A DNA stretch of 64,000 nt from Alphaproteobacteria bacterium (GTDB taxonomy: Bacteria > Pseudomonadota > Alphaproteobacteria > JAAXGF01): the NCBI GenBank assembly GCA_963555825.3, contig CAUVXB020000001.1, positions 224,001 through 288,000 of the forward strand, in the 5' to 3' direction. Position 1 is the stretch's first letter. Each line of letters begins with the position of its first letter. A model generated the notes under the pieces. The model had not been told where the DNA came from and ran no database searches. It worked only from the letters and a program-made list of their open reading frames with translations. A program made the position numbers and the translations under genes. Of this stretch, positions 1 to 44,569 are shown in pieces.

Positions 1-860
1 ACATTCGGCCGGGTCCTCTGCCGTCGGCGCCGCGTCAACGCTCGCAAGGTTCTCCTTGGCCGTCTCCAACGTTTTGGGAAGCGTCGTCGTGTCGCCCTCG
101 TCGGCCGGGTGCAGCTCGGCGGCCACCACCGCGCCGGTGTCCAGATCCACCGCGTGCTCGGGCTTGTAGGCCAGATGCGTCGTGCCGTCCTTCATCTTGG
201 CGATCTTGGCCTCGGGGTCGCTCTTCGAACCCAGTCCTCGTTGGAAAGCTTCTTGCCCTTGCGCTTGCGGTCCAGACGCGCCAGGTCCTCGGCCGTGGGC
301 GTCTCGATGCCGCTCTCCCGGGCCAGGTGCTCCAGCATCTCCCGGTAGCCTTCACCCGTGTCGCGCCGCACGATGTTGCGCAGCGCCGCGTTGGCCTCCA
401 TGGTCGAGGCATCCACCCCGATGCGCTCGCCCTTCACCAGACCCGCCTCGCCGATCAAGGCCAGAACCCAGTCGAAGACCGCCGCGTGGACTTCATGGGG
501 CAGGCGCGCGCGGGTCTTCGACAGCCAGGAATGGTCCGGCACCCGCTCACGGCTCCCCAGTCGCAGGAACTCCCGCAGCGACAGGGAATCCGAGCAACGC
601 CACTCCAGACCGCGCTCTGAGTCGATGCCCTCGAAGTAGCCCACCAGGTGCATGCGGAAATAGCGCCCGGGCGGCACCGAGGGCGCGCCCATCCTGGCCG
701 CGTAATAGGGCCGGCAGCTCGCCTCGGCAAAGGCGTCGAAGCCGCCCTCGATCAGCACCGACTGCAGGCGGTCGTAAAACACATGACCCGGCGAGCGCGG
801 CATCTCCGCCCAGCCCACCATCAAGTCCCCCTGACGATCCTTCTGCTGTCCCATCGCCAT
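1..860 (-). pseudogene. IS1182-family transposase, frameshifted
   Basis: GAPSVPPGRYFRM, PDHSWLSKTR and GVDASTMEANA motifs. The frame breaks at ~228-232 (EDWV) and continues in another frame as KSDPEAKIAKMKDGTTHLAYKPEHAVDLDTG. Confidence 0.8.
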
Positions 861-942
861 CGGCGAATCCTCCGGTCAAATCAGAACATCAAAGAATCAG
901 ACCAGGCCGCTTGCGTCCAGTGCCGACTTCGTCAACGGGCTG
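1..942 (-). mobile_element. IS1182-family element (left part; runs off window start), inserted into an IS66 transposase gene
   Basis: Transposase ORF starts at 860; terminus-like CAGCCCGTTGACGAAGTC ends at ~942; IS66 tnpC sequence resumes at 943. Confidence 0.75.
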
Positions 943-1176
943 ATAGGGCGACGGCTGTCGTTCGGTTCCGACAGCGAGGACGGCGCCAGGTTCACGGCGA
1001 TCATGTACTCGGTGGTGGGCACGCTCTCGATGAATGGCATCGACATCCTGAGCTGGCTGGACACGTGGCTCGCAGCGTGCGCGGAGAACGATCGCAAACC
1101 ACCGGACGACCTGTCGCCGTGGCTGCCATGGTCGATGAGCGAGGAGCGCAGGCGCGAACTCATGGCGCCGGCGTGA
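943..1176 (+). pseudogene. IS66 transposase (TnpC) C-terminal fragment
   Basis: My translation IGRRLSFGSDSEDGARFTAIMYSVVGTLSMNGIDILSWLD...LSPWLPWSM* resembles the IS66 TnpC C-terminus. Confidence 0.75.
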
Positions 1177-2054
1177 CCGGCGCGATCGAGTGCCGTTATT
1201 ACGGCCGCGACTTCACCGCCGGGGAAATGGCGCTGCTGCGCGCGCTGATCGCCGGGCCGCCGCCGTTGAACCGCCATATGCTGTCGAAGGAGTTCTGCCG
1301 GCGCATCGGCTGGTTCAAGCCCGACGGCGGCCTCAAGGACATGATGGCCAGGGTCGCCATGCTGGCCATGCACAGGGACGGCCTGATCGCCCTGCCGGCG
1401 CCGCAGGGACGGCAGAACCGGCCCGGGCCGATCGTCTTCGGGCCGGACACCGAAGCGCCGCTGTTCCCGGCCCCGACGACCCTCGACAAGGTCCGTCCGC
1501 TCGACCTGCGCCCCGTCGTGCGCGGCACCCGGGAGAGCAAGCTCTGGAACGAGTTCGTCGCCCGCTACCACTATCTCGGATACAAGACCCTGGTCGGCGC
1601 CCAGATGCGCTACGCCGTCCACGACCGCGACGGCTGGCCGCTCGCCATGCTCGGCTTCTCCACCGCCGCGTGGAAGCTCGCCCCGCGCGACAACTTCATC
1701 GGATGGACACGGCAGAAGCGCGAGAAGAACCTTCCCTTCGTGGTCGACAACCCGAGATTCCTGATCCTGCCCTGGATCAATATCCCCAACCTGGGTTCGC
1801 ACATCCTGGCCATCATCCGCCGGCGCCTGCCCGATGACTGGACCGAGCGCTACAACACCACGCCCGTGCTCATCGAGACCTTCGTCGAGACCCCGCGCTA
1901 CACCGGCGCCGTTTACAGGGCCTCCGGCTGGACCCGCGTCGGGACCACCCAGGGGCGCGGGCGCTACGACCGGGACAGGCAGTCCGACAAGCCTAAAAAG
2001 GATGTCTGGCTCCGGCCCCTGCGACGGGATTGGAAACGCACCCTCAATCGCTAA
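1173..2054 (+). CDS. DUF4338 (DruA-like) domain protein
   Basis: GTG overlaps the tnpC stop (GTGA). Motifs WNEFVARYHYLGY, RDNFIGW, NPRFLILPW, NLGSHIL, ETFVE and GAVYRASGW..VG.TQGRG. Confidence 0.8.
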   Translation: MTGAIECRYYGRDFTAGEMALLRALIAGPPPLNRHMLSKEFCRRIGWFKPDGGLKDMMARVAMLAMHRDGLIALPAPQGRQNRPGPIVFGPDTEAPLFPAPTTLDKVRPLDLRPVVRGTRESKLWNEFVARYHYLGYKTLVGAQMRYAVHDRDGWPLAMLGFSTAAWKLAPRDNFIGWTRQKREKNLPFVVDNPRFLILPWINIPNLGSHILAIIRRRLPDDWTERYNTTPVLIETFVETPRYTGAVYRASGWTRVGTTQGRGRYDRDRQSDKPKKDVWLRPLRRDWKRTLNR

Positions 2055-2113
2055 AATCGGCCGGGGCGAATGGAAACGCCCGCGCTGATTCCACGGCCTG
2101 AACGAACGCTTAC

Positions 2114-2990
2114 GTCCTCCCCCGCTTGATTGCCTGGTTTGGCCTCCTCGCCACACTCATCATCAACGATCTCGAACTGATCGCGCAGAACCCTCTCCAG
2201 GATCGCAAAACTGGAAAGCTTTGCCGCCGCCGTGTCACGGAATTGCAGCACCAGGGCTAGGAGATACTGACCCGCTTCGCCGAGGCGCCGTTTTGAAACA
2301 CTCGGCGCCGTATTCGCGAACGCGCCATTACCCTCGCGATCGACATAGCGGCGGATCACCTCCTTGCTGATCTGCTCGTGCAGACCGGGATGATATCGCT
2401 CAAGCTCACGGGCAAACTTCGAGATGCTCTCAACAACGATACCAAGTCGTGTCAGCGCCCGCATTGCCGAACGAAGGGCCGTCGAATCCATGCGTTGGTG
2501 GCTGGTATCGACAGAGAACCCCTGCACCAGCCGATCCGTCAAACACCGGAACAGCAATTCATCGAGACCTTGTTCGATAAACAGACGGCGATAGTTGCGC
2601 AGGGTTTTCTCACAGAAATAGCTGTCCGCTTCGCTGCGCACGTCCAAGGCATAGTGCCACGCCATATTGAAGGCCAGGGCCTCGACGGTCTCTGCATCGC
2701 TCAGATCGTGCAGCTGCTGCAAAAGCAAGACCCCGATGACAACGTGTAGATCCTTCGATGGTCGGCCCATGCGTTCATCAAGGTGACGGCAAAGATCGTC
2801 AACCGGAAGTTCGACAAGCAGATGGTTCCGAAAAACCCCGGCCCAGGATTGCTCCATCAGGCGCCGACGTTTGTCCCCGAAATCGGACCAGCGATCAAAC
2901 AATTCCCCAGTCCGTCGGTCGCGTAAAGTAAACATGCACAATTATAATCCAGCCGACTCTCATGAGGAATCGACTTTTTACCGCCCCGTC
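2114..2990 (-). pseudogene. Truncated copy of the IS1182-family element at 41258-43058 (left IR plus 5' half of transposase)
   Basis: Matches the full copy from IR GACGGGGCGGTAAAAAGT down to ~2157, then diverges and abuts the IS66 end. Confidence 0.9.
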
Positions 2991-4354
2991 AAAAGTTGTG
3001 TATGGGCTGATCATGCGGCGGCGCGATCCTGGCGTTCTCCATCTACGAATTTGACGCCGCGAATGATCTCGGCGAGATGGTTCGATCCATCGAGTTTTCT
3101 CCATTTTCTCTGAGCGCACTGGCATAGTTTGAAGACCATGGCCATCGCCGTCTTGCGCGACAGGCAGCCCTTGGTCCGGTAGGTGCGCAGACGAACCGTG
3201 GCGAACGTGCTCTCGATGGGGTTGGTCGTGCGTACATGCTTCCAGTGCTCGGCGGGGAAGTCGTAGAACGTCAGCAGGACGTCGCGGTCCTTGGCCAGGC
3301 AGGCCGCGGCCTTGTCGTACTTCGGCCCGTAGGCTTCCAGGAAGAAGTCGAAGGCGCTCTCGGCATCCTTCCTGGTTTCGGCCATCCAGATGTCTTGCAG
3401 GCGCCCCTTGGCTTTCTTTTGCAGACCCTTGGGCAGCTTGTTCAAGACGTTGCCCGTCTTGTGAACCCAGCAGCGTTGCTCGCGGGCGCCTGGGTAGACT
3501 TGGCGGAGCGCCTTCCAGAAGCCGAGCGCGCCGTCGCCGAGCGCCAGTTGCGGACCCATTTCAAGGCCGCGCCGCTTGAGATCGAGCAGAACTTCGAGCC
3601 AGGACTGCTCACTTTCGCGATAGCCGTCGGCGATGGCGATCAGTTCCTTCTGTCCCTTGTCCGTGGCCCCGACGATCACCAGGATGCACTGCTTCTCTTC
3701 CTCCATGCGGGCGCTGAAATAGATGCCGTCCACCCAGAAATAGACGTAGCGCTTGGCCGTGAGGTCGCGCCGTTGCCAGCGCTCCGCCTCAACCCCCCAG
3801 ACCTCTTTCAGCCGGGTGATCGTGGAGGCCGAAAGCCCCGGCGCGGAGCTCCCCAGGAGCGCCGCCAAGGCTTCCCCGAAGTCGCCGGTGGAAATGCCCT
3901 TCAGATACAGCCATGGCAAAAGGTCTTCCAGGCTCTTGGCGCGGCGCAGATAGCGCGGCAGGATCGCCGACGTGAAGCGGATGGCGCCGTCCCCCCGGTC
4001 CCGCACACGGGGTTGGCGCACGCTCACCGGGCCGATCCCGGTCTGGATGAAGCGTTCCGGCAGATATCCATTGCGGACAACCCGGCGGCGGCCGGCGGCG
4101 TCAACAAGCGCCGCATGGCTACCCAAAAACACGGAGACCTCGGCCTCAACGGCTTGGGCCAACAACTCGCGAGCTCCAGCTTGTAGGACTTCCGTCAACG
4201 GATCTTTCTGAAAATCAGATGGGTTTTGAAAAGCAACAACGGTATTCTCTTTCATGGCGTATCCTTCCTTGGCTTAGCTCAAGTGGTGACATCAACAATC
4301 ACCAGGATACGCCGCCTTCATTTCAACGCCGTACACAAGATTCGGTTATAGCTC
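2991..4354 (-). mobile_element. IS256-family element, copy 1 (outer 11 bp of right IR missing)
   Basis: IRL GAGCTATAACCGAATCTTGTGTA ends at 4354; the right IR is interrupted by the IS1182 element at 2990; same transposase as 43147-44391. Confidence 0.9.
3011..4255 (-). CDS. IS256-family (Mutator-like) transposase
   Basis: RNGY, YFWVDGIYF, GDGALGFW, QRCWVHK and RTTNPIES motifs; 414 aa. Confidence 0.95.
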   Translation of the reverse strand: MKENTVVAFQNPSDFQKDPLTEVLQAGARELLAQAVEAEVSVFLGSHAALVDAAGRRRVVRNGYLPERFIQTGIGPVSVRQPRVRDRGDGAIRFTSAILPRYLRRAKSLEDLLPWLYLKGISTGDFGEALAALLGSSAPGLSASTITRLKEVWGVEAERWQRRDLTAKRYVYFWVDGIYFSARMEEEKQCILVIVGATDKGQKELIAIADGYRESEQSWLEVLLDLKRRGLEMGPQLALGDGALGFWKALRQVYPGAREQRCWVHKTGNVLNKLPKGLQKKAKGRLQDIWMAETRKDAESAFDFFLEAYGPKYDKAAACLAKDRDVLLTFYDFPAEHWKHVRTTNPIESTFATVRLRTYRTKGCLSRKTAMAMVFKLCQCAQRKWRKLDGSNHLAEIIRGVKFVDGERQDRAAA

Positions 4355-4650: not shown

Positions 4651-6122
4651 GGCGGATTCAACCGGTCGTCGCAACACATTCAGTTTGACTGGCCTGCAAG
4701 CACTGGTCCAGAGCTTCGGCGGGAGTTCTCCATCCGAGGGTCTTGCGGGGCCGTGTATTGAGCGCGTCAGCAACAACTGCGAGTACGTCCGGACTGTGTA
4801 CGCTCAGATCGGTTCCTTTCGGGAAGTACTGTCGAAGCAGTCCATTGGTGTTCTCGTTCGTTCCGCGTTGCCAAGGGCTGTGCGGTTCGCAGAAGTAGAC
4901 GGGAAGGCCGGTTGCGATCCGAAGATCCGCATGCCTGGCCATCTCTGCTCCCTGGTCCCAGGTCAGCGAGCGGCGAAGCTGCGCTGGCAATGTCGTGATC
5001 GTCCGGGCGATGGCATCGCGAACCGCTTCAGCCCCATGACCGGCAAGCGCAGGCCCGTTCTTCACGCGCGGGACGGTGCCGTGGCCTTCCATTCGGGGAA
5101 GATGCAGCAGCATTGTGAACCGCGTGGTGCGTTCCACCAGAGTGCCGATCGCCGATCTGCCCAAGCCGATGATCAGGTCACCTTCCCAGTGTCCGGGTAC
5201 GGCCCGATCAGCTGCTTCCGCCGATCGTTCACTGATCATGATCTCAGGCGTGACGAAGGATTTGCCCCGCCGGCGGCTACGTGCCCGAGGCACGCGCAGT
5301 GCCCTTCCCGTGCGAAGGCAGGCGGTCAGCTCACGACGGAGTGCGCCGCGGCCCTGTACGTAGAGCGCCTGATAGATCGCCTCATGACTGATCCGCATCG
5401 CTTGATCCTCGGGCCCGTCCCCAGGATAGTCGATCCGAAGACGGTGCGCGATCTGCTCAGGACTCCAGGCCCTGGCCCATCGCCTGTGCTGCCGCGGCCC
5501 ATGCCGACGACCGTTCCAGACGACGCGTGGCCCCTCGATCACCGTTCCATCCGGTGCCGAGATCCGACCCGCAAGCCGATCCTGCACATAGCGCCGCAGC
5601 GCCTCATTCGTTGCCAGCTTAGCTGGCTTCGGCCTTTTGGCGGATCGATCAGCATGCCACTGCGCCGTCGTTGCTCGGTAGTCCAGGCCACCGCTTCGGG
5701 TCGCCGCGTTGCGCCGCACCTCGCGGGAGATCGTCGACGGTGCTCGCTCCAGCCGGCAAGCAATATGACGTATGCCTCTTCCCTGGGCGCGCAGAAGAGC
5801 AATCTCCTCACGTTCCTCGAAAGACAGGTAACGTCCTGACAGCGGCTTGGCCGATTGCGATAAATGTGATGGTGGCATGCCGCCCGACCTCCGGAACCAC
5901 CTCGAGCCTACCGGAGGGGATACACCGGCATCTCGGGCCGCGTCCTCGCTCGAACGCCCCGTCGCAATCGCTGCCCAGAACCGAACAAGCTCCTCACGCC
6001 GTGCCGAGTCCGGTCGACCTGGCGAATGCAACTTGCTCCGTCCAGACCGATCCGACCGCCGTCTGCGTACCGTCATAGTAACCTCCTATGCCAGAGTGTT
6101 GCGACGACCGATTGAACTCGCC
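4651..6122 (-). mobile_element. IS30-family element
   Basis: IRs GGCGGATTCAACCGGTCGTCGCAACA / TGTTGCGACGACCGATTGAACTCGCC; 3-bp duplication CTG on both sides. Confidence 0.9.
4658..6076 (-). CDS. IS30-family transposase
   Basis: WSPEQI, ISHEAIY, GHWEGDLI, TWDQGAEM and SPWQRGTNENTNGLLRQYFPKG motifs. Confidence 0.95.
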   Translation of the reverse strand: MTVRRRRSDRSGRSKLHSPGRPDSARREELVRFWAAIATGRSSEDAARDAGVSPPVGSRWFRRSGGMPPSHLSQSAKPLSGRYLSFEEREEIALLRAQGRGIRHIACRLERAPSTISREVRRNAATRSGGLDYRATTAQWHADRSAKRPKPAKLATNEALRRYVQDRLAGRISAPDGTVIEGPRVVWNGRRHGPRQHRRWARAWSPEQIAHRLRIDYPGDGPEDQAMRISHEAIYQALYVQGRGALRRELTACLRTGRALRVPRARSRRRGKSFVTPEIMISERSAEAADRAVPGHWEGDLIIGLGRSAIGTLVERTTRFTMLLHLPRMEGHGTVPRVKNGPALAGHGAEAVRDAIARTITTLPAQLRRSLTWDQGAEMARHADLRIATGLPVYFCEPHSPWQRGTNENTNGLLRQYFPKGTDLSVHSPDVLAVVADALNTRPRKTLGWRTPAEALDQCLQASQTECVATTG

Positions 6123-11075: not shown

Positions 11076-11308
11076 CGCCCGGATATTTCACTAGACCGGG
11101 CTCACGCGAGCTCGCGAATACGCCCGGGCGAGCCGACGCTACCGGCGACGATCAGATAGCCGATAGCGCCTCGTGAGCGGCTTCCATGAGCAACACCGGG
11201 TCGACTTTGGTGGTGCGATAGGTGTGAGGGAAAGCGATTGGATCAACGCTAGTGTCCTGATCGATAAATTGATATGATTATGTCTCTATTTGTTTTTAGG
11301 AGGCGCGA

Positions 11309-12433
11309 TTGATGGCGAGAGTGGCGGTGACGATCTCTTTGAGCGATGACGAGCGCGCCGAATTGGAGGCGCTGTCTCGTCGTCGCAAGACGTCGCAGGG
11401 GCTTGCGCGGCGGGCTCGGATCGTCTTGGCGGCGGCGGAAGGGTTGGAGAACAAGGAGATCGCCGTTCGTCTCGAGGCGAGCGCGGACACCGTGGGCAAG
11501 TGGCGTCGCCGCTATGCGGCGGAGGGCCTCGACGGTCTGTACGACGAACCCCGCCCCGGCGCGCCGCGTCAAATCGGCGATGACGCCATCGCGGAAGCGG
11601 TCCGGCTGACGCTGGAAGAGACGCCGCCGGACGCGACCCATTGGAGCCTTCGCTCGATGGCGCGGGCGAGCGGCCACGCGCCCTCGACCATTCATCGCAT
11701 CTGGCGGGCCTTCGGCTTGCAGCCGCATCGCTCGGAGACCTTCAAGCTGTCGAGCGATCCCTTCTTCGTGGAGAAGGTCCGCGACATCGTCGGTCTGTAT
11801 TTGGCGCCGCCGGATCGTGCCCTGGTTCTCTGTGTCGACGAAAAGAGCCAGATCCAGGCCCTGGACCGTTCCCAGCCCCTCTTGCCGATGCGCCCCGGGC
11901 AGGCGGAGCGGCGCAGCCACGACTACAAGCGCCACGGCACGACCTCTCTCTTCGCGGCCCTCGACATCGCCACGGGAGAGATCATCGGCAAATGTTTCCC
12001 GCGCCATCGGGCCCGAGAGTTCCGCAAATTCCTCGACCTCGTCGAGGCGAACGTCCCTGCTGATCTCGACATCCACATCGTCATGGACAACTACGGGACC
12101 CACAAGACCAAGGCGATCCGCGACTGGTTCGCCAAACGGCCGCGCTGGCAGGCCCATTTCACACCCACCAGCGCCTCCTGGCTGAACCAGGTCGAGCGCT
12201 GGTTCGGGCTGCTGACCGACAAGCAGATCAGGCGCGGCGTCCATCGCTCCACCAAGGAGTTGGAGCGCACCATCCTCGACTACATCGACACGACAAACCA
12301 GAACCCCAAACCCTTCAAATGGACCAAATCCGCCGATGACATCCTCGGCGCCATCCAGCGCTTCTGCCTCCGAACAATCGAAATCGCTGAACAGCAGGCG
12401 AAAATCATGCGAACTTCGGAATCGGGACACTAG
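11309..12433 (+). CDS. IS630-family transposase (copy 1)
   Basis: [28 protein letters not shown] and [12 protein letters not shown] motifs. Confidence 0.95.
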
Positions 12434-12489
12434 TGTCCTGATCGATAAATTGATATGATTATGTCTCTATTTGTTTTTAGGAGGCGCGA

Positions 12490-13614
12490 TTGATGGCGAG
12501 AGTGGCGGTGACGATCTCTTTGAGCGATGACGAGCGCGCCGAATTGGAGGCGCTGTCTCGTCGTCGCAAGACGTCGCAGGGGCTTGCGCGGCGGGCTCGG
12601 ATCGTCTTGGCGGCGGCGGAAGGGTTGGAGAACAAGGAGATCGCCGTTCGTCTCGAGGCGAGCGCGGACACCGTGGGCAAGTGGCGTCGCCGCTATGCGG
12701 CGGAGGGCCTCGACGGTCTGTACGACGAACCCCGCCCCGGCGCGCCGCGTCAAATCGGCGATGACGCCATCGCGGAAGCGGTCCGGCTGACGCTGGAAGA
12801 GACGCCGCCGGACGCGACCCATTGGAGCCTTCGCTCGATGGCGCGGGCGAGCGGCCACGCGCCCTCGACCATTCATCGCATCTGGCGGGCCTTCGGCTTG
12901 CAGCCGCATCGCTCGGAGACCTTCAAGCTGTCGAGCGATCCCTTCTTCGTGGAGAAGGTCCGCGACATCGTCGGTCTGTATTTGGCGCCGCCGGATCGTG
13001 CCCTGGTTCTCTGTGTCGACGAAAAGAGCCAGATCCAGGCCCTGGACCGTTCCCAGCCCCTCTTGCCGATGCGCCCCGGGCAGGCGGAGCGGCGCAGCCA
13101 CGACTACAAGCGCCACGGCACGACCTCTCTCTTCGCGGCCCTCGACATCGCCACGGGAGAGATCATCGGCAAATGTTTCCCGCGCCATCGGGCCCGAGAG
13201 TTCCGCAAATTCCTCGACCTCGTCGAGGCGAACGTCCCTGCTGATCTCGACATCCACATCGTCATGGACAACTACGGGACCCACAAGACCAAGGCGATCC
13301 GCGACTGGTTCGCCAAACGGCCGCGCTGGCAGGCCCATTTCACACCCACCAGCGCCTCCTGGCTGAACCAGGTCGAGCGCTGGTTCGGGCTGCTGACCGA
13401 CAAGCAGATCAGGCGCGGCGTCCATCGCTCCACCAAGGAGTTGGAGCGCACCATCCTCGACTACATCGACACGACAAACCAGAACCCCAAACCCTTCAAA
13501 TGGACCAAATCCGCCGATGACATCCTCGGCGCCATCCAGCGCTTCTGCCTCCGAACAATCGAAATCGCTGAACAGCAGGCGAAAATCATGCGAACTTCGG
13601 AATCGGGACACTAG
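12490..13614 (+). CDS. IS630-family transposase (copy 2)
   Basis: Translation identical to copy 1. Confidence 0.95.
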
Positions 13615-13670
13615 TGTCCTGATCGATAAATTGATATGATTATGTCTCTATTTGTTTTTAGGAGGCGCGA

Positions 13671-14795
13671 TTGATGGCGAGAGTGGCGGTGACGATCTCT
13701 TTGAGCGATGACGAGCGCGCCGAATTGGAGGCGCTGTCTCGTCGTCGCAAGACGTCGCAGGGGCTTGCGCGGCGGGCTCGGATCGTCTTGGCGGCGGCGG
13801 AAGGGTTGGAGAACAAGGAGATCGCCGTTCGTCTCGAGGCGAGCGCGGACACCGTGGGCAAGTGGCGTCGCCGCTATGCGGCGGAGGGCCTCGACGGTCT
13901 GTACGACGAACCCCGCCCCGGCGCGCCGCGTCAAATCGGCGATGACGCCATCGCGGAAGCGGTCCGGCTGACGCTGGAAGAGACGCCGCCGGACGCGACC
14001 CATTGGAGCCTTCGCTCGATGGCGCGGGCGAGCGGCCACGCGCCCTCGACCATTCATCGCATCTGGCGGGCCTTCGGCTTGCAGCCGCATCGCTCGGAGA
14101 CCTTCAAGCTGTCGAGCGATCCCTTCTTCGTGGAGAAGGTCCGCGACATCGTCGGTCTGTATTTGGCGCCGCCGGATCGTGCCCTGGTTCTCTGTGTCGA
14201 CGAAAAGAGCCAGATCCAGGCCCTGGACCGTTCCCAGCCCCTCTTGCCGATGCGCCCCGGGCAGGCGGAGCGGCGCAGCCACGACTACAAGCGCCACGGC
14301 ACGACCTCTCTCTTCGCGGCCCTCGACATCGCCACGGGAGAGATCATCGGCAAATGTTTCCCGCGCCATCGGGCCCGAGAGTTCCGCAAATTCCTCGACC
14401 TCGTCGAGGCGAACGTCCCTGCTGATCTCGACATCCACATCGTCATGGACAACTACGGGACCCACAAGACCAAGGCGATCCGCGACTGGTTCGCCAAACG
14501 GCCGCGCTGGCAGGCCCATTTCACACCCACCAGCGCCTCCTGGCTGAACCAGGTCGAGCGCTGGTTCGGGCTGCTGACCGACAAGCAGATCAGGCGCGGC
14601 GTCCATCGCTCCACCAAGGAGTTGGAGCGCACCATCCTCGACTACATCGACACGACAAACCAGAACCCCAAACCCTTCAAATGGACCAAATCCGCCGATG
14701 ACATCCTCGGCGCCATCCAGCGCTTCTGCCTCCGAACAATCGAAATCGCTGAACAGCAGGCGAAAATCATGCGAACTTCGGAATCGGGACACTAG
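13671..14795 (+). CDS. IS630-family transposase (copy 3)
   Basis: Translation identical to copy 1. Confidence 0.95.
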
Positions 14796-14851
14796 TGTCC
14801 TGATCGATAAATTGATATGATTATGTCTCTATTTGTTTTTAGGAGGCGCGA

Positions 14852-15976
14852 TTGATGGCGAGAGTGGCGGTGACGATCTCTTTGAGCGATGACGAGCGCG
14901 CCGAATTGGAGGCGCTGTCTCGTCGTCGCAAGACGTCGCAGGGGCTTGCGCGGCGGGCTCGGATCGTCTTGGCGGCGGCGGAAGGGTTGGAGAACAAGGA
15001 GATCGCCGTTCGTCTCGAGGCGAGCGCGGACACCGTGGGCAAGTGGCGTCGCCGCTATGCGGCGGAGGGCCTCGACGGTCTGTACGACGAACCCCGCCCC
15101 GGCGCGCCGCGTCAAATCGGCGATGACGCCATCGCGGAAGCGGTCCGGCTGACGCTGGAAGAGACGCCGCCGGACGCGACCCATTGGAGCCTTCGCTCGA
15201 TGGCGCGGGCGAGCGGCCACGCGCCCTCGACCATTCATCGCATCTGGCGGGCCTTCGGCTTGCAGCCGCATCGCTCGGAGACCTTCAAGCTGTCGAGCGA
15301 TCCCTTCTTCGTGGAGAAGGTCCGCGACATCGTCGGTCTGTATTTGGCGCCGCCGGATCGTGCCCTGGTTCTCTGTGTCGACGAAAAGAGCCAGATCCAG
15401 GCCCTGGACCGTTCCCAGCCCCTCTTGCCGATGCGCCCCGGGCAGGCGGAGCGGCGCAGCCACGACTACAAGCGCCACGGCACGACCTCTCTCTTCGCGG
15501 CCCTCGACATCGCCACGGGAGAGATCATCGGCAAATGTTTCCCGCGCCATCGGGCCCGAGAGTTCCGCAAATTCCTCGACCTCGTCGAGGCGAACGTCCC
15601 TGCTGATCTCGACATCCACATCGTCATGGACAACTACGGGACCCACAAGACCAAGGCGATCCGCGACTGGTTCGCCAAACGGCCGCGCTGGCAGGCCCAT
15701 TTCACACCCACCAGCGCCTCCTGGCTGAACCAGGTCGAGCGCTGGTTCGGGCTGCTGACCGACAAGCAGATCAGGCGCGGCGTCCATCGCTCCACCAAGG
15801 AGTTGGAGCGCACCATCCTCGACTACATCGACACGACAAACCAGAACCCCAAACCCTTCAAATGGACCAAATCCGCCGATGACATCCTCGGCGCCATCCA
15901 GCGCTTCTGCCTCCGAACAATCGAAATCGCTGAACAGCAGGCGAAAATCATGCGAACTTCGGAATCGGGACACTAG
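14852..15976 (+). CDS. IS630-family transposase (copy 4)
   Basis: Translation identical to copy 1. Confidence 0.95.
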
Positions 15977-22441: not shown

Positions 22442-23206
22442 TCAGTTCGCCGTCGGGGTTTGACGCCTGCGGCTCTGGTTGAGCCTGTAGCTGTCACCGT
22501 TCATCTCGAGGATGTTGACGTGGTGGGTGAGGCGGTCGAGGAGAGCGCCGGTGAGGCGCTCGGAGCCGAACACCTCGGTCCATTCGTCGAAGGGCAGATT
22601 GGTGGTGACCAGGGTCGAGCCCCGCTCGTAGCGTTGGCTGAACACCTCGAACAACAGCTCGGCGCCGGTCTTCGACAGCGGCACGAAGCCGAGTTCGTCG
22701 ACGATCAGAAGCTTGTAGGTGGCGAGCTTCTTCTGGAACCTCAGCAGCTGCTTGTCATCGCGGGCCTCGATGAGTTCGTGGACCAGCGCGGCGGCGGTGA
22801 TGAAGCCGACCGAGAGGCCCTTCTGGCAGGCCGCCAGGCCGAGACCGAGGGCGATGTGGGTCTTGCCGGTCCCACTGTTGCCGAGCGCGATGAGGTTCTC
22901 GCGGCGCTCGATGTACTCGCAGCGGGCCAGCTCCAGGACCAGCGCCTTGTTGAGCGAGGGGATGACCTTGAAGTCGAAGCTGTCGAGGCTCTTGACCACG
23001 GGGAAGCGCGCCGCCTTGATGCGCCGCTCGACCATGCGGCGCTCGCGGTCGATCAGCTCGAGCTCGGCGAGTCTCAACAGGTAGCGGACGTGATCGACGC
23101 CTTCCGAGGCGCACTGCCGGGCGATCTTGTCGTACTCGCGCAGGAAGGTCGGCAGCTTCAGCGTCTTGAGGTGGTGGGCGAGCAGCACTTGCGGTGTGTC
23201 GGTCAT
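22442..23206 (-). CDS. istB: IS21 ATP-binding helper
   Basis: GNSGTGKTH, LLIVDELG, TTNLPF and LLDRLTHH motifs. Confidence 0.95.
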   Translation of the reverse strand: MTDTPQVLLAHHLKTLKLPTFLREYDKIARQCASEGVDHVRYLLRLAELELIDRERRMVERRIKAARFPVVKSLDSFDFKVIPSLNKALVLELARCEYIERRENLIALGNSGTGKTHIALGLGLAACQKGLSVGFITAAALVHELIEARDDKQLLRFQKKLATYKLLIVDELGFVPLSKTGAELLFEVFSQRYERGSTLVTTNLPFDEWTEVFGSERLTGALLDRLTHHVNILEMNGDSYRLNQSRRRQTPTAN

Positions 23207-24702
23207 GCGCCGAGCCCCGACAGCAGGCTCATGTACGACTTGGCGGACGTCATCGCGACCCGGGCGCGCGGCAGATACGGATAGACGTCGAGGTTGAGCC
23301 TGGGCGGCCGCCGCTCGATGCGGCACAGTACCAGGTGCTTCACCGCATCAAAGCCGATTGCGCCGAGCCGCAGGGCGTCGCCGACCGCACCCTCGACCTC
23401 CTCGAGCCGGAAGGTCTCCAGTAGACGGAGCACCTGGACGTACTCGCGCTTGCCTGCCTTGCCCATACGAGCTTCGAGGAGCCGCCGCAGAGTGATGAAG
23501 GCCTCGGGCAGGTCCCAGCCCGCCAATGGCGCGGCCTGGTCGAGGGCGCCGATCTTCTGCTCGATCAAGGGCAGGTAATGCAGCGGGTCGAAGATCAGGT
23601 CCTCGCTGTCGTAGGACCGGCGGTGCCGGGCGATCACCTCGGCCCCGCAGCTGATCACCACCTCATCGACGTAGCCCCGGATGAGCACCTCACGGTGGCC
23701 GTAGGCCACGGGCACGGAATAGTCGTTGCTGCGGTAACGCACCAGCGACAGCGAACTCGCCCGTCCAGGGCGCTTATCGCAGGCATCATAGGGAGCAGGC
23801 GGCAATGGCAAGAGAACTTGACGATCCCGCTCGAGACGCTCGCCGATGGTCTCCTTGTGGCCCCGCAGCCGCGCCGCCTGGCGCCGGCGGCACTGTTCGG
23901 CGAGAGCATCGTTGAGGGCCGCGAAGCTCTCGGCACGCGGGACGGGGACCAGGAAGTTCCGCCGGATGAAGCCGACCAGTCCCTCGACCTTGCCCTTGTC
24001 GTTGCCCTTGCCCGGCCGGCCGAACCTGTCCTCGAACAGATAGTGGGACTGAAGCTCCGTGAAGACGCGCGTTCGCTGCCGCTTCCCATCGCCCAGGATC
24101 CGGGCAACCGCCAGCTTGGTGTTGTCGTACAGGATGGATCGGGGGACGCCGCCGAAGAAGGCAAACGCCGCGTTGTGGCCATCGCAGAATGCTTCGGTCG
24201 TCTCCGCCGGATAGGCCGCAACAAAGCAACCATCACTGTGGGGAAGGTCGAAGGCAAGGAAGTGGATCTTCCGTAACGCGCCGCCGATCACCGCCATCGC
24301 TTCGCCGAAGTCCGCCTGGGCGTGACCGGGGGAATGGGAGAGTGGCACGAACACCTCACGCGACCGAAGCCCCTGCTCACGAACGTAGTCCTTCACGATG
24401 GTGTAGCCGCCCGTGAAACCGTACTCGTCCCGGAGGCGGTCGAAGATGCGCTTCGCAGTGTGCCGTTGCTTGCGGTGGCTGGTCCGATCGTCTTCCAAGA
24501 TCCGATCGATGATTCCCGTGAACGGACCCAGCTTTGGCCGCCTCGGCGGCGCGCTTCGGCGATACCCTGGCGGCACCGAGAACGACAGCATCTTACGGAC
24601 CGTCTTGCGGTCTACACCAAACACCCGCGAGGCCTCGCGGGTGCTCATCCCCTCGACATGACACGCCCGCCGAACCCGTGCGTACAACTCCACCCGATAC
24701 AT
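23203..24702 (-). CDS. istA: IS21 transposase
   Basis: AQADFG, GGVPRSILYDN and KGKVEG motifs; ATGA overlap with istB. Confidence 0.95.
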   Translation of the reverse strand: MYRVELYARVRRACHVEGMSTREASRVFGVDRKTVRKMLSFSVPPGYRRSAPPRRPKLGPFTGIIDRILEDDRTSHRKQRHTAKRIFDRLRDEYGFTGGYTIVKDYVREQGLRSREVFVPLSHSPGHAQADFGEAMAVIGGALRKIHFLAFDLPHSDGCFVAAYPAETTEAFCDGHNAAFAFFGGVPRSILYDNTKLAVARILGDGKRQRTRVFTELQSHYLFEDRFGRPGKGNDKGKVEGLVGFIRRNFLVPVPRAESFAALNDALAEQCRRRQAARLRGHKETIGERLERDRQVLLPLPPAPYDACDKRPGRASSLSLVRYRSNDYSVPVAYGHREVLIRGYVDEVVISCGAEVIARHRRSYDSEDLIFDPLHYLPLIEQKIGALDQAAPLAGWDLPEAFITLRRLLEARMGKAGKREYVQVLRLLETFRLEEVEGAVGDALRLGAIGFDAVKHLVLCRIERRPPRLNLDVYPYLPRARVAMTSAKSYMSLLSGLGA

Positions 24703-24820
24703 CCCCCCCGCCTTCCAGTCAGAGCAACCCTGACAGAAGGCTATACGCGGTCCCATTTTGGTCCGCCGCAGCCGGATCGACCGGCCGCTTCAGTGGGGGA
24801 TTATTGCTCTGCCGTTCTCA

Positions 24821-41191: not shown

Positions 41192-41257
41192 TACGCAAAC
41201 CACCGTGTCGCGGCCCTTCACAAAATTCTAGCCTTGTCGGAGCTATAACCGAATCTT

Positions 41258-43058
41258 GACGGGGCGGTAAAAAGTCGATTCCTCATGAGAGTCGGCTGGA
41301 TTATAATTGTGCATGTTTACTTTACGCGACCGACGGACTGGGGAATTGTTTGATCGCTGGTCCGATTTCGGGGACAAACGTCGGCGCCTGATGGAGCAAT
41401 CCTGGGCCGGGGTTTTTCGGAACCATCTGCTTGTCGAACTTCCGGTTGACGATCTTTGCCGTCACCTTGATGAACGCATGGGCCGACCATCGAAGGATCT
41501 ACACGTTGTCATCGGGGTCTTGCTTTTGCAGCAGCTGCACGATCTGAGCGATGCAGAGACCGTCGAGGCCCTGGCCTTCAATATGGCGTGGCACTATGCC
41601 TTGGACGTGCGCAGCGAAGCGGACAGCTATTTCTGTGAGAAAACCCTGCGCAACTATCGCCGTCTGTTTATCGAACAAGGTCTCGATGAATTGCTGTTCC
41701 GGTGTTTGACGGATCGGCTGGTGCAGGGGTTCTCTGTCGATACCAGCCACCAACGCATGGATTCGACGGCCCTTCGTTCGGCAATGCGGGCGCTGACACG
41801 ACTTGGTATCGTTGTTGAGAGCATCTCGAAGTTTGCCCGTGAGCTTGAGCGATATCATCCCGGTCTGCACGAGCAGATCAGCAAGGAGGTGATCCGCCGC
41901 TATGTCGATCGCGAGGGTAATGGCGCGTTCGCGAATACGGCGCCGAGTGTTTCAAAACGGCGCCTCGGCGAAGCGGGTCAGTATCTCCTAGCCCTGGTGC
42001 TGCAATTCCGTGACACGGCGGCGGCAAAGCTTTCCAGTTTTGCGATCCTGGAGAGGGTTCTGCGCGATCAGTTCGAGATCGTTGATGATGAGTATGGCGA
42101 TCGTGACGCAACGCGCGCCGCGATTCGAGATCCAAAGGATGTGCCGTGCGATACCGTCGGCAATCCGGCCGACCCGGACGCGAGCTACAACGCGCACAAG
42201 GGTCAAGGATACATGGCGCAGATCGTCGAAACCTATTGTGAAGATGTCAGTAACGAGGCGGTTGCCGCGACACCGGACCTCATCACCCACGTGGAGGTCC
42301 ACAAGATGACGGTGCATGACGGCCATCGCTTAGCCGATGCGCTGGATGATCTGAGCGAGCGCGCGCTGACGCCGGCGGTGATGCTGGGTGATTCACATTA
42401 CGGTTCCAGTGACAACATGGCTCTGACGCGCGAACAGAACATCAATCTCGTGGCGCCCGCACGACCGCCGAAAGGCGCCGTCTCGGGACGGTTGACGTTG
42501 GAGGATTTCACTCTCAACGAAGAAGGCTTGGTCTTGCGCTGTCCCAATAACGTCGAACCGGTTTCAGCCTCGCTCGCCAAAGCCAAGCTGCAGGCCCGTT
42601 TCGACCTCTCCATCTGCCAAAAATGTCCCGATATACTGCGATGTCCCGTGCAGGCGGCCAAGCGTGACGGCCAATTTTCCCGCTTTCAATATACCCCGGC
42701 CAGGGCTGCCAACCAAAAGCGCCGGCTTTATGAACAAAGCGATGCCTTCCGCAACGTCTACAGATGGCGGGCCGGCATAGAAGCGACCATGTCGCGATTA
42801 AAGTACCAGATGAACCTGGCTCACCTACGCATTCGCGGCATGCCGGCCATGCGCTACGTGGTCAATCTGCGTGCCCTCGGCCTCAATATCCGACGCTGCG
42901 CGGCAATCGCACCATAAAAAACGAAGCCAAGGAGAAGCCAAGGGTAGGTAATATCAGGTTTTATCCACCAGCAACGCGGAGACAGGCAAATATTCTTCAC
43001 CGAACCGCAAAGACCTGTACAAGCACGCCATCGGCCAACAACTTTTTACCGCCCCGTC
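41258..43058 (+). mobile_element. IS1182-family element, complete
   Basis: 18-bp perfect IRs GACGGGGCGGTAAAAAGT; 7-bp duplication GAATCTT at 41251-41257 and 43059-43065. Confidence 0.92.
41313..42917 (+). CDS. IS1182-family transposase
   Basis: GRPSK, MDST, DPDASY, DSHYGS, CP..CxxC..CP insertion and YRWRAGIEATMS motifs. Confidence 0.85.
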   Translation: MFTLRDRRTGELFDRWSDFGDKRRRLMEQSWAGVFRNHLLVELPVDDLCRHLDERMGRPSKDLHVVIGVLLLQQLHDLSDAETVEALAFNMAWHYALDVRSEADSYFCEKTLRNYRRLFIEQGLDELLFRCLTDRLVQGFSVDTSHQRMDSTALRSAMRALTRLGIVVESISKFARELERYHPGLHEQISKEVIRRYVDREGNGAFANTAPSVSKRRLGEAGQYLLALVLQFRDTAAAKLSSFAILERVLRDQFEIVDDEYGDRDATRAAIRDPKDVPCDTVGNPADPDASYNAHKGQGYMAQIVETYCEDVSNEAVAATPDLITHVEVHKMTVHDGHRLADALDDLSERALTPAVMLGDSHYGSSDNMALTREQNINLVAPARPPKGAVSGRLTLEDFTLNEEGLVLRCPNNVEPVSASLAKAKLQARFDLSICQKCPDILRCPVQAAKRDGQFSRFQYTPARAANQKRRLYEQSDAFRNVYRWRAGIEATMSRLKYQMNLAHLRIRGMPAMRYVVNLRALGLNIRRCAAIAP

Positions 43059-43146
43059 GAATCTTGTGTACGGCGTTGAAATGAAGGCGGCGTATCCTGG
43101 TGATTGTTGATGTCACCACTTGAGCTAAGCCAAGGAAGGATACGCC

Positions 43147-44391
43147 ATGAAAGAGAATACCGTTGTTGCTTTTCAAAACCCATCTGATTTTCAGAAAGAT
43201 CCGTTGACGGAAGTCCTACAAGCTGGAGCTCGCGAGTTGTTGGCCCAAGCCGTTGAGGCCGAGGTCTCCGTGTTTTTGGGTAGCCATGCGGCGCTTGTTG
43301 ACGCCGCCGGCCGCCGCCGGGTTGTCCGCAATGGATATCTGCCGGAACGCTTCATCCAGACCGGGATCGGCCCGGTGAGCGTGCGCCAACCCCGTGTGCG
43401 GGACCGGGGGGACGGCGCCATCCGCTTCACGTCGGCGATCCTGCCGCGCTATCTGCGCCGCGCCAAGAGCCTGGAAGACCTTTTGCCATGGCTGTATCTG
43501 AAGGGCATTTCCACCGGCGACTTCGGGGAAGCCTTGGCGGCGCTCCTGGGGAGCTCCGCGCCGGGGCTTTCGGCCTCCACGATCACCCGGCTGAAAGAGG
43601 TCTGGGGGGTTGAGGCGGAGCGCTGGCAACGGCGCGACCTCACGGCCAAGCGCTACGTCTATTTCTGGGTGGACGGCATCTATTTCAGCGCCCGCATGGA
43701 GGAAGAGAAGCAGTGCATCCTGGTGATCGTCGGGGCCACGGACAAGGGACAGAAGGAACTGATCGCCATCGCCGACGGCTATCGCGAAAGTGAGCAGTCC
43801 TGGCTCGAAGTTCTGCTCGATCTCAAGCGGCGCGGCCTTGAAATGGGTCCGCAACTGGCGCTCGGCGACGGCGCGCTCGGCTTCTGGAAGGCGCTCCGCC
43901 AAGTCTACCCAGGCGCCCGCGAGCAACGCTGCTGGGTTCACAAGACGGGCAACGTCTTGAACAAGCTGCCCAAGGGTCTGCAAAAGAAAGCCAAGGGGCG
44001 CCTGCAAGACATCTGGATGGCCGAAACCAGGAAGGATGCCGAGAGCGCCTTCGACTTCTTCCTGGAAGCCTACGGGCCGAAGTACGACAAGGCCGCGGCC
44101 TGCCTGGCCAAGGACCGCGACGTCCTGCTGACGTTCTACGACTTCCCCGCCGAGCACTGGAAGCATGTACGCACGACCAACCCCATCGAGAGCACGTTCG
44201 CCACGGTTCGTCTGCGCACCTACCGGACCAAGGGCTGCCTGTCGCGCAAGACGGCGATGGCCATGGTCTTCAAACTATGCCAGTGCGCTCAGAGAAAATG
44301 GAGAAAACTCGATGGATCGAACCATCTCGCCGAGATCATTCGCGGCGTCAAATTCGTAGATGGAGAACGCCAGGATCGCGCCGCCGCATGA
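43147..44391 (+). CDS. IS256-family transposase
   Basis: Translation identical to 3011-4255. Confidence 0.95.
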   Translation: MKENTVVAFQNPSDFQKDPLTEVLQAGARELLAQAVEAEVSVFLGSHAALVDAAGRRRVVRNGYLPERFIQTGIGPVSVRQPRVRDRGDGAIRFTSAILPRYLRRAKSLEDLLPWLYLKGISTGDFGEALAALLGSSAPGLSASTITRLKEVWGVEAERWQRRDLTAKRYVYFWVDGIYFSARMEEEKQCILVIVGATDKGQKELIAIADGYRESEQSWLEVLLDLKRRGLEMGPQLALGDGALGFWKALRQVYPGAREQRCWVHKTGNVLNKLPKGLQKKAKGRLQDIWMAETRKDAESAFDFFLEAYGPKYDKAAACLAKDRDVLLTFYDFPAEHWKHVRTTNPIESTFATVRLRTYRTKGCLSRKTAMAMVFKLCQCAQRKWRKLDGSNHLAEIIRGVKFVDGERQDRAAA

Positions 44392-44569
44392 TCAGCCCAT
44401 ACACAACTTTTGACAATAGCTCGCCTTGTCGCACGGATACACTCGTGTGCACTAGTAGCCGCCGACTCTAGGCTTCTCTAAAGAGTGCGATTTGATTAAC
44501 TTCTGTGAACAGAAGTGAATTGCGTGATCATGCGTGAAGCCAGGAACTTGTAACCCGGAATGTAACCCG

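Follow-up and report, generated by a model that had tools for sequence, protein, structure and literature searches.

IS4321 and IS5075 (IS1111 group, IS110 family) insert in the 38-bp terminal repeats of Tn21-type transposons, and do so in one orientation and without a known target duplication. Insertion sequences with DDE transposases usually choose their targets loosely; IS231A (IS4 family, DDE) reportedly prefers the terminal repeats of Tn4430, with a loose consensus and many other sites used. According to PMC4923244, palindrome targeting is on record for members of the IS1182 family (citing Siguier et al. 2015), and IS1272 is described as making blunt cuts in hairpin-stem targets that share no primary-sequence consensus, deleting part of the target and leaving no duplication. 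Other insertion sequences, such as IS1397 and those of the ISPa11 type, target repetitive extragenic palindromic (REP) and bacterial interspersed mosaic element (BIME) repeats, according to PMC1525189. Here we analyze an IS1182-like insertion sequence in a 64,000-nucleotide (nt) stretch, henceforth the window, of the genome (6.04 Mb, two contigs) of an Alphaproteobacteria bacterium, where it sits within the terminal inverted repeat of an IS256-family element (Table 1). We put at roughly 80% the probability that an active, divergent IS1182-like element selects the terminal repeats of IS256 elements of the GAGCTAT type, cutting between nt 11 and 12 on one strand and between nt 18 and 19 on the other.

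The initial annotation of the window had proposed, from two insertions, nt 12-18 of IS256 terminal repeats as the target of the IS1182-like element, and both insertions are as it described them. At the first, the left repeat of an IS256 copy is split by the 1801-bp element and GAATCTT is duplicated, while in 25 intact copies of this genome the uninterrupted 18-mer continues directly into GTGTACGG. At the second, another copy of the element abuts AAAAGTT-GTGTA, nt 12-18 of the right repeat, at position 2991: the left tip of the element, reverse-complemented, lies against AAAAGTTGTGTA, the inner half of a minus-strand IS256 right repeat. The suspicion that this 2990/2991 junction might be a recombination product was not borne out, since the same junction (AAAAGTT-GTGTATGG on the inner side) recurs at 10 termini genome-wide.

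By its profile matches, the targeted element is a clear IS256-family member: its transposase hits Pfam Transposase_mut (PF00872, E 1.3e-58) and the NCBIfam model IS256 (NF033543, 320 bits with a cut-off of 150). Members of this family are about 1.3-1.4 kb long, have imperfect terminal repeats and duplicate 8-9 bp of their target, and the host copy agrees in size, repeats and duplication. Without the insert, the window copy measures 1382 bp and has the ends GAGCTATAACC... and GAGCTATTGTC...; the 9-bp target duplications read GCCTTGTCG for this copy and GTTTCAGAC at another locus.

ISfinder descriptions give the IS1182 family one transposase open reading frame (ORF), short terminal inverted repeats and a total length of about 1.3-2 kb, and the element fits this layout with its 1801 bp, single 536-residue ORF and perfect 18-bp repeats. 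The predicted transposase contains DUF772 (residues 59-130) and DDE_Tnp_1_6 plus DDE_Tnp_1 (residues 325-531), all above the Pfam cut-offs, and a Y-x2-R-x3-E-x6-K signature can be read in the translation as YRWRAGIEATMSRLK near the C-terminus. Its best NCBIfam match is IS1182 (NF033551, E 5.6e-51), aligned nearly over the full length (residues 42-533 on model positions 31-487/488). Because the score of 173.9 bits lies under the cut-off of 270, we use the name IS1182-like; annotated IS1182 transposases, recovered as more distant tblastn matches, are only 26-28% identical to it. On these scores the transposase belongs to a divergent IS1182-like clade, short of the curated IS1182 score.

BLAST with the element finds 53 matches across the genome, 25 end-to-end and 28 partial. 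We located its termini by searching for the 18-bp terminal repeat with at most two mismatches, which returned 76 places, one of them a chance match followed by unrelated sequence. Among the 75 genuine termini that remain, 73 adjoin a terminal repeat of the IS256 type, cut at nt 11/12 and at nt 18/19, 40 at the tip half and 33 at the inner half, and the other two flank one insertion at a locus that we call site E. The tip-half junctions read GAGCTAT-N4-N7, two of the 40 with a 1-nt insertion or deletion. When counted from the motif, the register is just as sharp: GA[GA]CTAT occurs 551 times on the two strands of the genome, and the element stands 18 nt from the motif start in 39 cases, 17 nt from it in one (a copy with a deletion) and at none of the other offsets from 7 to 34. 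A chance origin of the register is excluded. A perfect 7-bp duplication flanks 23 of the 24 copies of exactly 1801 bp. The lone copy without one has a right-repeat tip on one side and a left-repeat inner half on the other, and is a recombinant (chimeric) copy.

Both ends of IS256 receive the element, and both in either orientation, with roughly equal frequency. Of the IS256 ends labeled host A, 13/38 left ends (forward:reverse, 7:6) and 14/43 right ends (6:8) are occupied, as are 10/15 left ends of hosts B/C (4:6). Relative to the repeat tip, 19 insertions point forward and 20 in reverse genome-wide, without bias, so that the co-orientation with the IS256 transposase gene that had been noted for the two window copies, while correct for both, is a coincidence. 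At least nine distinct configurations can be told apart, comprising the left and right repeats of host A in both orientations, host B/C in both orientations, and sites D and E. The commonest haplotype, represented by six identical copies, is found in the right repeat and, in either orientation, in the left one. Since an identical haplotype sits in several repeat types and orientations, one master sequence entered different repeats separately, and the insertions are independent events.

It could be argued that the element has no real preference, and that a handful of accidental IS256 insertions multiplied as composite IS256::element units transposed or were duplicated, other insertions having been purged by selection. 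Insertions into an insertion sequence are probably neutral for the cell, and composite movement is conceivable, as a short recipient end still integrates in ISCth4 according to PMC7780238. Moreover, three copies share a rare variant of the right terminal repeat, and that end always lies beside the inner half of the host A left repeat in the same orientation, a weak hint that an IS256 with an interrupted end has moved and carried the element along. However, a register exact to the single nucleotide cannot arise by selection, and it is shared by all of the at least nine configurations, three of which hold the commonest haplotype, and by different IS256 species in two other genomes and many metagenomes (see below). 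We therefore regard amplification without preference as very improbable.

What the element recognizes can be narrowed down from the sites that it uses and those that it passes over. IS256-family tips other than GAGCTAT (GGTCGTGTCCC and GGGGATGTCCC; about 26 copies in the own genome) carry zero insertions. Positions of a symmetric core around the duplication are conserved (C10, A13, T17, G19 and G20), and this core, CC-R-A-N3-T-Y-GG, was considered as the whole target. It was rejected: among 4873 loose core-like sites (searched as YYRA-N3-TYGK), 75 have the tip, and only tip-bearing ones are used. On the inner side, GGTGA and TCACA are used as well as GTGTA. Thus, from the motif GAGCTA-N5-[7]-GTGTA put forward by the initial annotation, the tip and the register stand, but GTGTA is not required. 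Also considered was targeting by resemblance of the target to the element's own terminal repeat, since AAAAGTTGT is common to the element's right end and the right repeat of host A. This was set aside as weak, given that relatives of 43-58% identity keep the 18-bp repeat and sit in unrelated flanks.

At site E, the element is inserted with a 7-bp duplication (GATCATC) where an amidohydrolase gene ends, in single-copy DNA with no IS256 nearby. Upstream of the duplication, at the exact IS256 register, stands GAACTATATCC (GAACTAT-N4), and the similarity to the IS256 repeat stops at nt 13. The motif GA[GA]CTAT-N4-[GA]A[AT]NNT[TC] has 116 matches in the genome, of which, beyond site E, only two lie outside recurrent IS256-type ends; the motif was derived after the fact, which makes this count circular and descriptive only.

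Such a fixed target could also be specified by a non-coding RNA of the element that pairs with the IS256 repeat, as in IS110/IS1111 elements. The closest functional precedent, IS4321/IS5075, uses an RNA guide according to PMC11187229 and PMC11208160, and the present element has a non-coding right end of 141 nt. Its enzyme, however, is a DDE transposase and not a DEDD recombinase, and a 7-bp duplication and insertion in either orientation are what staggered cuts by DDE enzymes typically yield. The element shares 3, 6 and 7 7-mers with the three main targets, where about 6.6 are expected per target, and the sole shared 9-mer lies within and just inside the right terminal repeat. With a DDE enzyme and complementarity not above chance, an RNA guide has hardly any probability at all.

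We extended the comparison to 401 genomes of the same class (by protein), 41 relatives including the own genome (by DNA), plasmids and one metagenome scan. The element was found by DNA in none of the 40 relatives and by protein in 3/401 same-class genomes, the own genome included. G202, a genome from another family of the class, has three copies at 99% DNA identity, and all six termini lie in IS256 repeats at the same register (GAGCTATTGTC-AAAAGTT-GGTGAC and GAGCTATACCC-GAAAGTT-GGTGAT), the transposase of these IS256 elements being 74% identical to that of host A. The locus of a 37%-identical relative, in the genome G040, showed no comparable ends.

On a plasmid of Microvirga sp. VF16 (NZ_CP069355.1) lies a relative whose transposase is 71% identical and whose 18-bp repeat is the same; 3/3 termini there stand beside GAGCTATGACG or AAGCTATGACG plus 7 nt. 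One copy (L019 2934-4753) has inward-pointing 18-nt IS256 tips on both sides, the body of IS256 being gone, and a 9-bp direct repeat (ATGGAGTGG), IS256's own duplication, outside both tips. This tip-element-tip remnant was probably left by a deletion through recombination between two co-oriented copies in both ends of one IS256, and the arrangement recurs in the metagenome contigs L083 and L031/L038. A second, partial Microvirga copy adjoins AAGCTATGACG-GAATTTA. Searching plasmid DNA with the Microvirga copy revealed no plasmid besides NZ_CP069355.1, and a scan of viral contigs for the element's 18-mer gave zero matches.

In metagenomes, the exact 18-mer occurs in 100 stretches with 116 termini, 108 of which are non-redundant. 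We grouped these by a tblastn match to the window transposase inside the element, and scored a terminus as tip-like if positions -18 to -12 had at most one mismatch to GAGCTAT (chance, 0.13% per terminus). With the transposase verified inside, 58 termini have enough flank (two more have a flank too short), and they divide into 31 tip-like, 13 inner-like and 14 other termini, which places 44/58 in the IS256 register. The 31 tip-like termini comprise 15 with an exact GAGCTAT and 16 with one mismatch, all at the exact register, and an IS256-family transposase gene lies in the flank of 7/13 inner-like ones. Where the interior was too short to verify, 21 termini with enough flank include 7 tip-like, 2 inner-like and 12 other; where no transposase similarity was found inside, the 27 with enough flank include 11, 5 and 11, respectively. 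The class of other termini consists overall of near-misses, relatives of 43-58% identity that keep the repeat within unrelated flanks, and probable chance matches to the 18-mer.

The metagenome targets have the consensus G-A-G-y-T-A-T-r-n-C-y followed by R-A-A-a-g-T-T, with nt 1-7, 10, 13 and 17 strongly conserved (the tip-side set was picked by its match to nt 1-7) and an uninformative flank beyond the IS256 tip. The targeting behavior is conserved among relatives whose transposase identity falls as low as about 62%. The proposal of the initial annotation, made at n = 2, now stands on 73/75 termini, at least nine configurations and 23/24 duplications in the own genome, and on a shared register in metagenomes and two further genomes; the flank check that it had called for, covering all copies in the own genome and in relatives, did not place the other copies in unrelated targets.

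How might the position be read? We propose that the transposase itself would read the DNA of IS256 nt 1-18, needing neither the inner part of the repeat nor the IS256 transposase. A symmetric DDE transpososome would capture a target recognized on one side and cut it with a 7-bp stagger, in either orientation; a fixed distance from an asymmetric motif together with the use of both orientations is as expected of such a complex. We infer direct reading of DNA from site E, from the tip-only flanks of the remnants and from element ends that lie exactly 7 bp apart, as in L033 (nt 23-65, GACTTTT), L057 (nt 239-281, GAAAGTT) and a contig of the public run X3 (GAAAGTT), whose joint maps to window 43061/41256. 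This spacing fits a second insertion, because the tip-side junction still retains nt 1-18. No such junction exists in the assembled own genome.

Alternatively, the transposase may dock on the IS256 transposase bound to its repeat, or on an IS256 transposition intermediate, with the register set by the geometry of the complex. Nearly all targets are indeed IS256 ends in genomes where the IS256 transposase gene is present, and the sparing of a consensus-fitting end of host B (see below) could reflect differential protein occupancy. Yet no IS256 element is present at site E, whose sequence stops resembling the repeat after nt 13; ends spaced by 7 bp imply that a half-site without nt 19 onward is still used; tip-only remnants serve as flanks in Microvirga; and insertions occur in all of the hosts despite differences of 26-30% between their transposases. 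We consider docking on the IS256 machinery unlikely. The initial annotation had left a DNA motif and a transposase-bound end side by side; site E and the 7-bp-spaced ends favor the motif and disfavor the bound end.

For the host, the insertion would part the IS256 tip from a sub-terminal binding site and so disable the end as a donor. A guide is ISCth4, an IS256-family element with 26-31-bp repeats and 8-bp duplications, for which PMC7780238 reports that one transposase domain contacts bp 7-11 and another bp 14-25, that ends under 25 bp integrate poorly and that junction integration remains possible with a recipient end of 14 bp. An insertion at nt 18/19 splits an ISCth4-type contact site, and for this reason it probably disables the interrupted IS256 end. 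In the own genome, 52 IS256 copies of the GAGCTAT type have a full-length transposase gene; both ends are intact in 21, and for at least 23 we scored an end as occupied. From the standpoint of the IS1182-like element, IS256 ends would be harmless, multi-copy landing sites that travel horizontally.

Several points weigh against this interpretation. Although the host B right end (GAGCTATGTCCGAAAGTTGGTGAC) matches the consensus, 0/16 copies of it (all in the own genome, G000, e.g. C2 near 3270300) are occupied, against 10/15 of its left end. All used targets in the own genome and G202 have A or T at nt 8, where the host B right end has G, and in the own genome no other difference is consistent, but G at nt 8 is frequent among the targets of metagenome relatives; some factor beyond the consensus affects target use. 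Among verified metagenome termini, 14/58 do not fit: some are near-misses (register +1 or two mismatches), several are relatives of only 43-58% identity, and a few are close relatives in unrelated flanks. Direct reading of DNA would hang on one off-target site (site E) plus the 7-bp-spaced junctions, and the latter, notably the joint in run X3, could instead be circle (or tandem) junctions. The disabling of IS256 is extrapolated from another member of its family, ISCth4, and, given the short recipient ends that work there, an IS256 interrupted at one end may keep some mobility and might carry the element along.

Weighing both sides, we regard the specificity of the IS1182-like element for IS256 ends as an observation with good support, and its mechanism as moderately supported. 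A broader picture, which we offer only tentatively and hold to be somewhat improbable as a whole, would be that of a widespread IS1182-like DDE clade with a protein-encoded, asymmetric recognition of about 18 bp and no guide RNA: a hyperparasite that cripples the donor function of IS256 ends, re-enters the tip-side half-site to build 7-bp-spaced arrays and may ride along where IS256 employs the remaining 18-bp tip as a recipient end.

Table 1. Positions of the IS1182-like element, its IS256 hosts and their junctions in the window.
Feature	Positions	Strand	Remarks
IS1182-like insertion sequence	41258..43058	+	1801 bp; 25 end-to-end genome copies, 97-100% identity
Element left terminal inverted repeat, GACGGGGCGGTAAAAAGT	41258..41275	+	exact 18-mer also in 100 metagenome stretches
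Element right terminal inverted repeat	43041..43058	-	18 bp, perfect complement of left
Predicted transposase ORF, 536 residues	41307..42917	+	start TTG at 41307; first ATG at 41313 would give 534 residues
Left copy of 9-bp target duplication of host IS256, GCCTTGTCG	41231..41239	+	same 9-mer after right tip, 44423-44431
IS256 left terminal repeat nt 1-18, GAGCTATAACC + GAATCTT	41240..41257	+	left copy of 7-bp duplication at nt 12-18
Right copy of 7-bp duplication GAATCTT (IS256 repeat nt 12-18)	43059..43065	+	followed by GTGTACGG
Remainder of host IS256 element, from repeat nt 12 inward	43059..44422	+	transposase gene 43147-44391; intact right tip 44405-44422
Truncated second element copy, nt 1-843	2148..2990	-	99.9% identity; left tip at 2990 adjoins IS256 right repeat
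IS256-family copy 1	2991..4354	-	without right-repeat nt 1-11; intact left tip 4337-4354; transposase gene 3011-4255

Further observations concern the element and its surroundings. Two different insertion sequences lie inside copies of the IS1182-like element, at its nt 37-52 (G000 C1 863174-864591 and C2 1792565-1794206); they hit the AT-rich stretch GGATTATAATTG directly upstream of the element's start codon, giving three levels of elements, and another copy (G000 C1 1503705) is truncated at nt 46. Contigs from metatranscriptomes (runs X15 and X17, from two studies) cover nearly the whole element, window 41224-43086, in pieces of 1694 and 1356 nt, which is a hint at environmental transcription and no more, as RNA libraries can carry over DNA. 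In the metagenome set, two units from the group with no transposase similarity inside, bounded by the 18-bp inverted repeats and lying within IS256-type repeats (L040 203-303, 101 bp; L106 535-664, 130 bp) are candidate miniature non-autonomous derivatives. The truncated copy in the window stops at its nt 843, where other repeated elements begin, and window 1-2147 is a mosaic of such repeats: nt 1-942 belong to a multi-copy element with a DUF772 transposase fragment and nt 943-2113 to a multi-copy element whose ORF matches the DruA (Druantia) domain. Integrase-core transposase genes are also found at window 4658-6076 and 23203-24756, in a region very rich in insertion sequences. Window 11246-15969 holds four head-to-tail copies of an IS630-type element (DDE_3 plus helix-turn-helix) with a period of 1181 bp, 99.9-100% identical; the unit gives 80 BLAST matches genome-wide and forms at least one further run of three adjacent copies (G000 C1 1422093-1425633). 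Whole-element tandem arrays of this kind are unusual.

Transposon biologists would find in the IS1182-like element a natural system for asking how a long, asymmetric target can be recognized by a DDE transposase that has neither RNA nor accessory proteins to help it, as well as a DDE integrase of high site specificity. Occupied IS256 ends should lower IS256 activity in the own genome and, if the proposed mechanism is true, naturally hold IS256 expansion in check. Staphylococci and enterococci are among the bacteria in which IS256-family elements are important, and a natural inactivator of GAGCTAT-type IS256 ends would, again if true, be of general interest. In addition, scattered identical copies of 1.8 kb drive recombination, as seen in the one chimeric copy of the own genome and in the tip-element-tip remnants elsewhere.

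A literature search, with ISfinder and TnPedia entries and supplements outside its reach, yielded no account of IS256 ends being targeted by an IS1182-like element, but several known systems invite comparison. IS1272/TnSha1 belongs to the same broad transposase family, as judged by best profile match. Unlike IS1272, our element recognizes a primary sequence that is asymmetric, makes cuts staggered by 7 bp and deletes nothing. Compared with what is said of IS231A, it is far stricter, with 73/75 termini in the target, and the families of transposase and victim both differ. With REP/BIME-targeting elements it has in common a short, multi-copy and selectively neutral repeat as landing site; their target, however, is a host repeat rather than the end of a transposable element, and so lacks the hyperparasitic consequence expected here. 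The nearest parallel is IS4321/IS5075, which likewise land at one fixed position in the terminal inverted repeat of another mobile element. Yet the victim here is an IS256-family element instead of a Tn3-family transposon, a 7-bp duplication is made and both orientations are used. Moreover, IS4321/IS5075 depend on an RNA-guided DEDD recombinase, whereas our element encodes a DDE transposase and shows no guide-like complementarity. The IS1182-like element therefore resembles IS4321/IS5075 in what it parasitizes but is no member of that group, and it would represent a second, mechanistically different route to the transposon-end-targeting lifestyle known from them.

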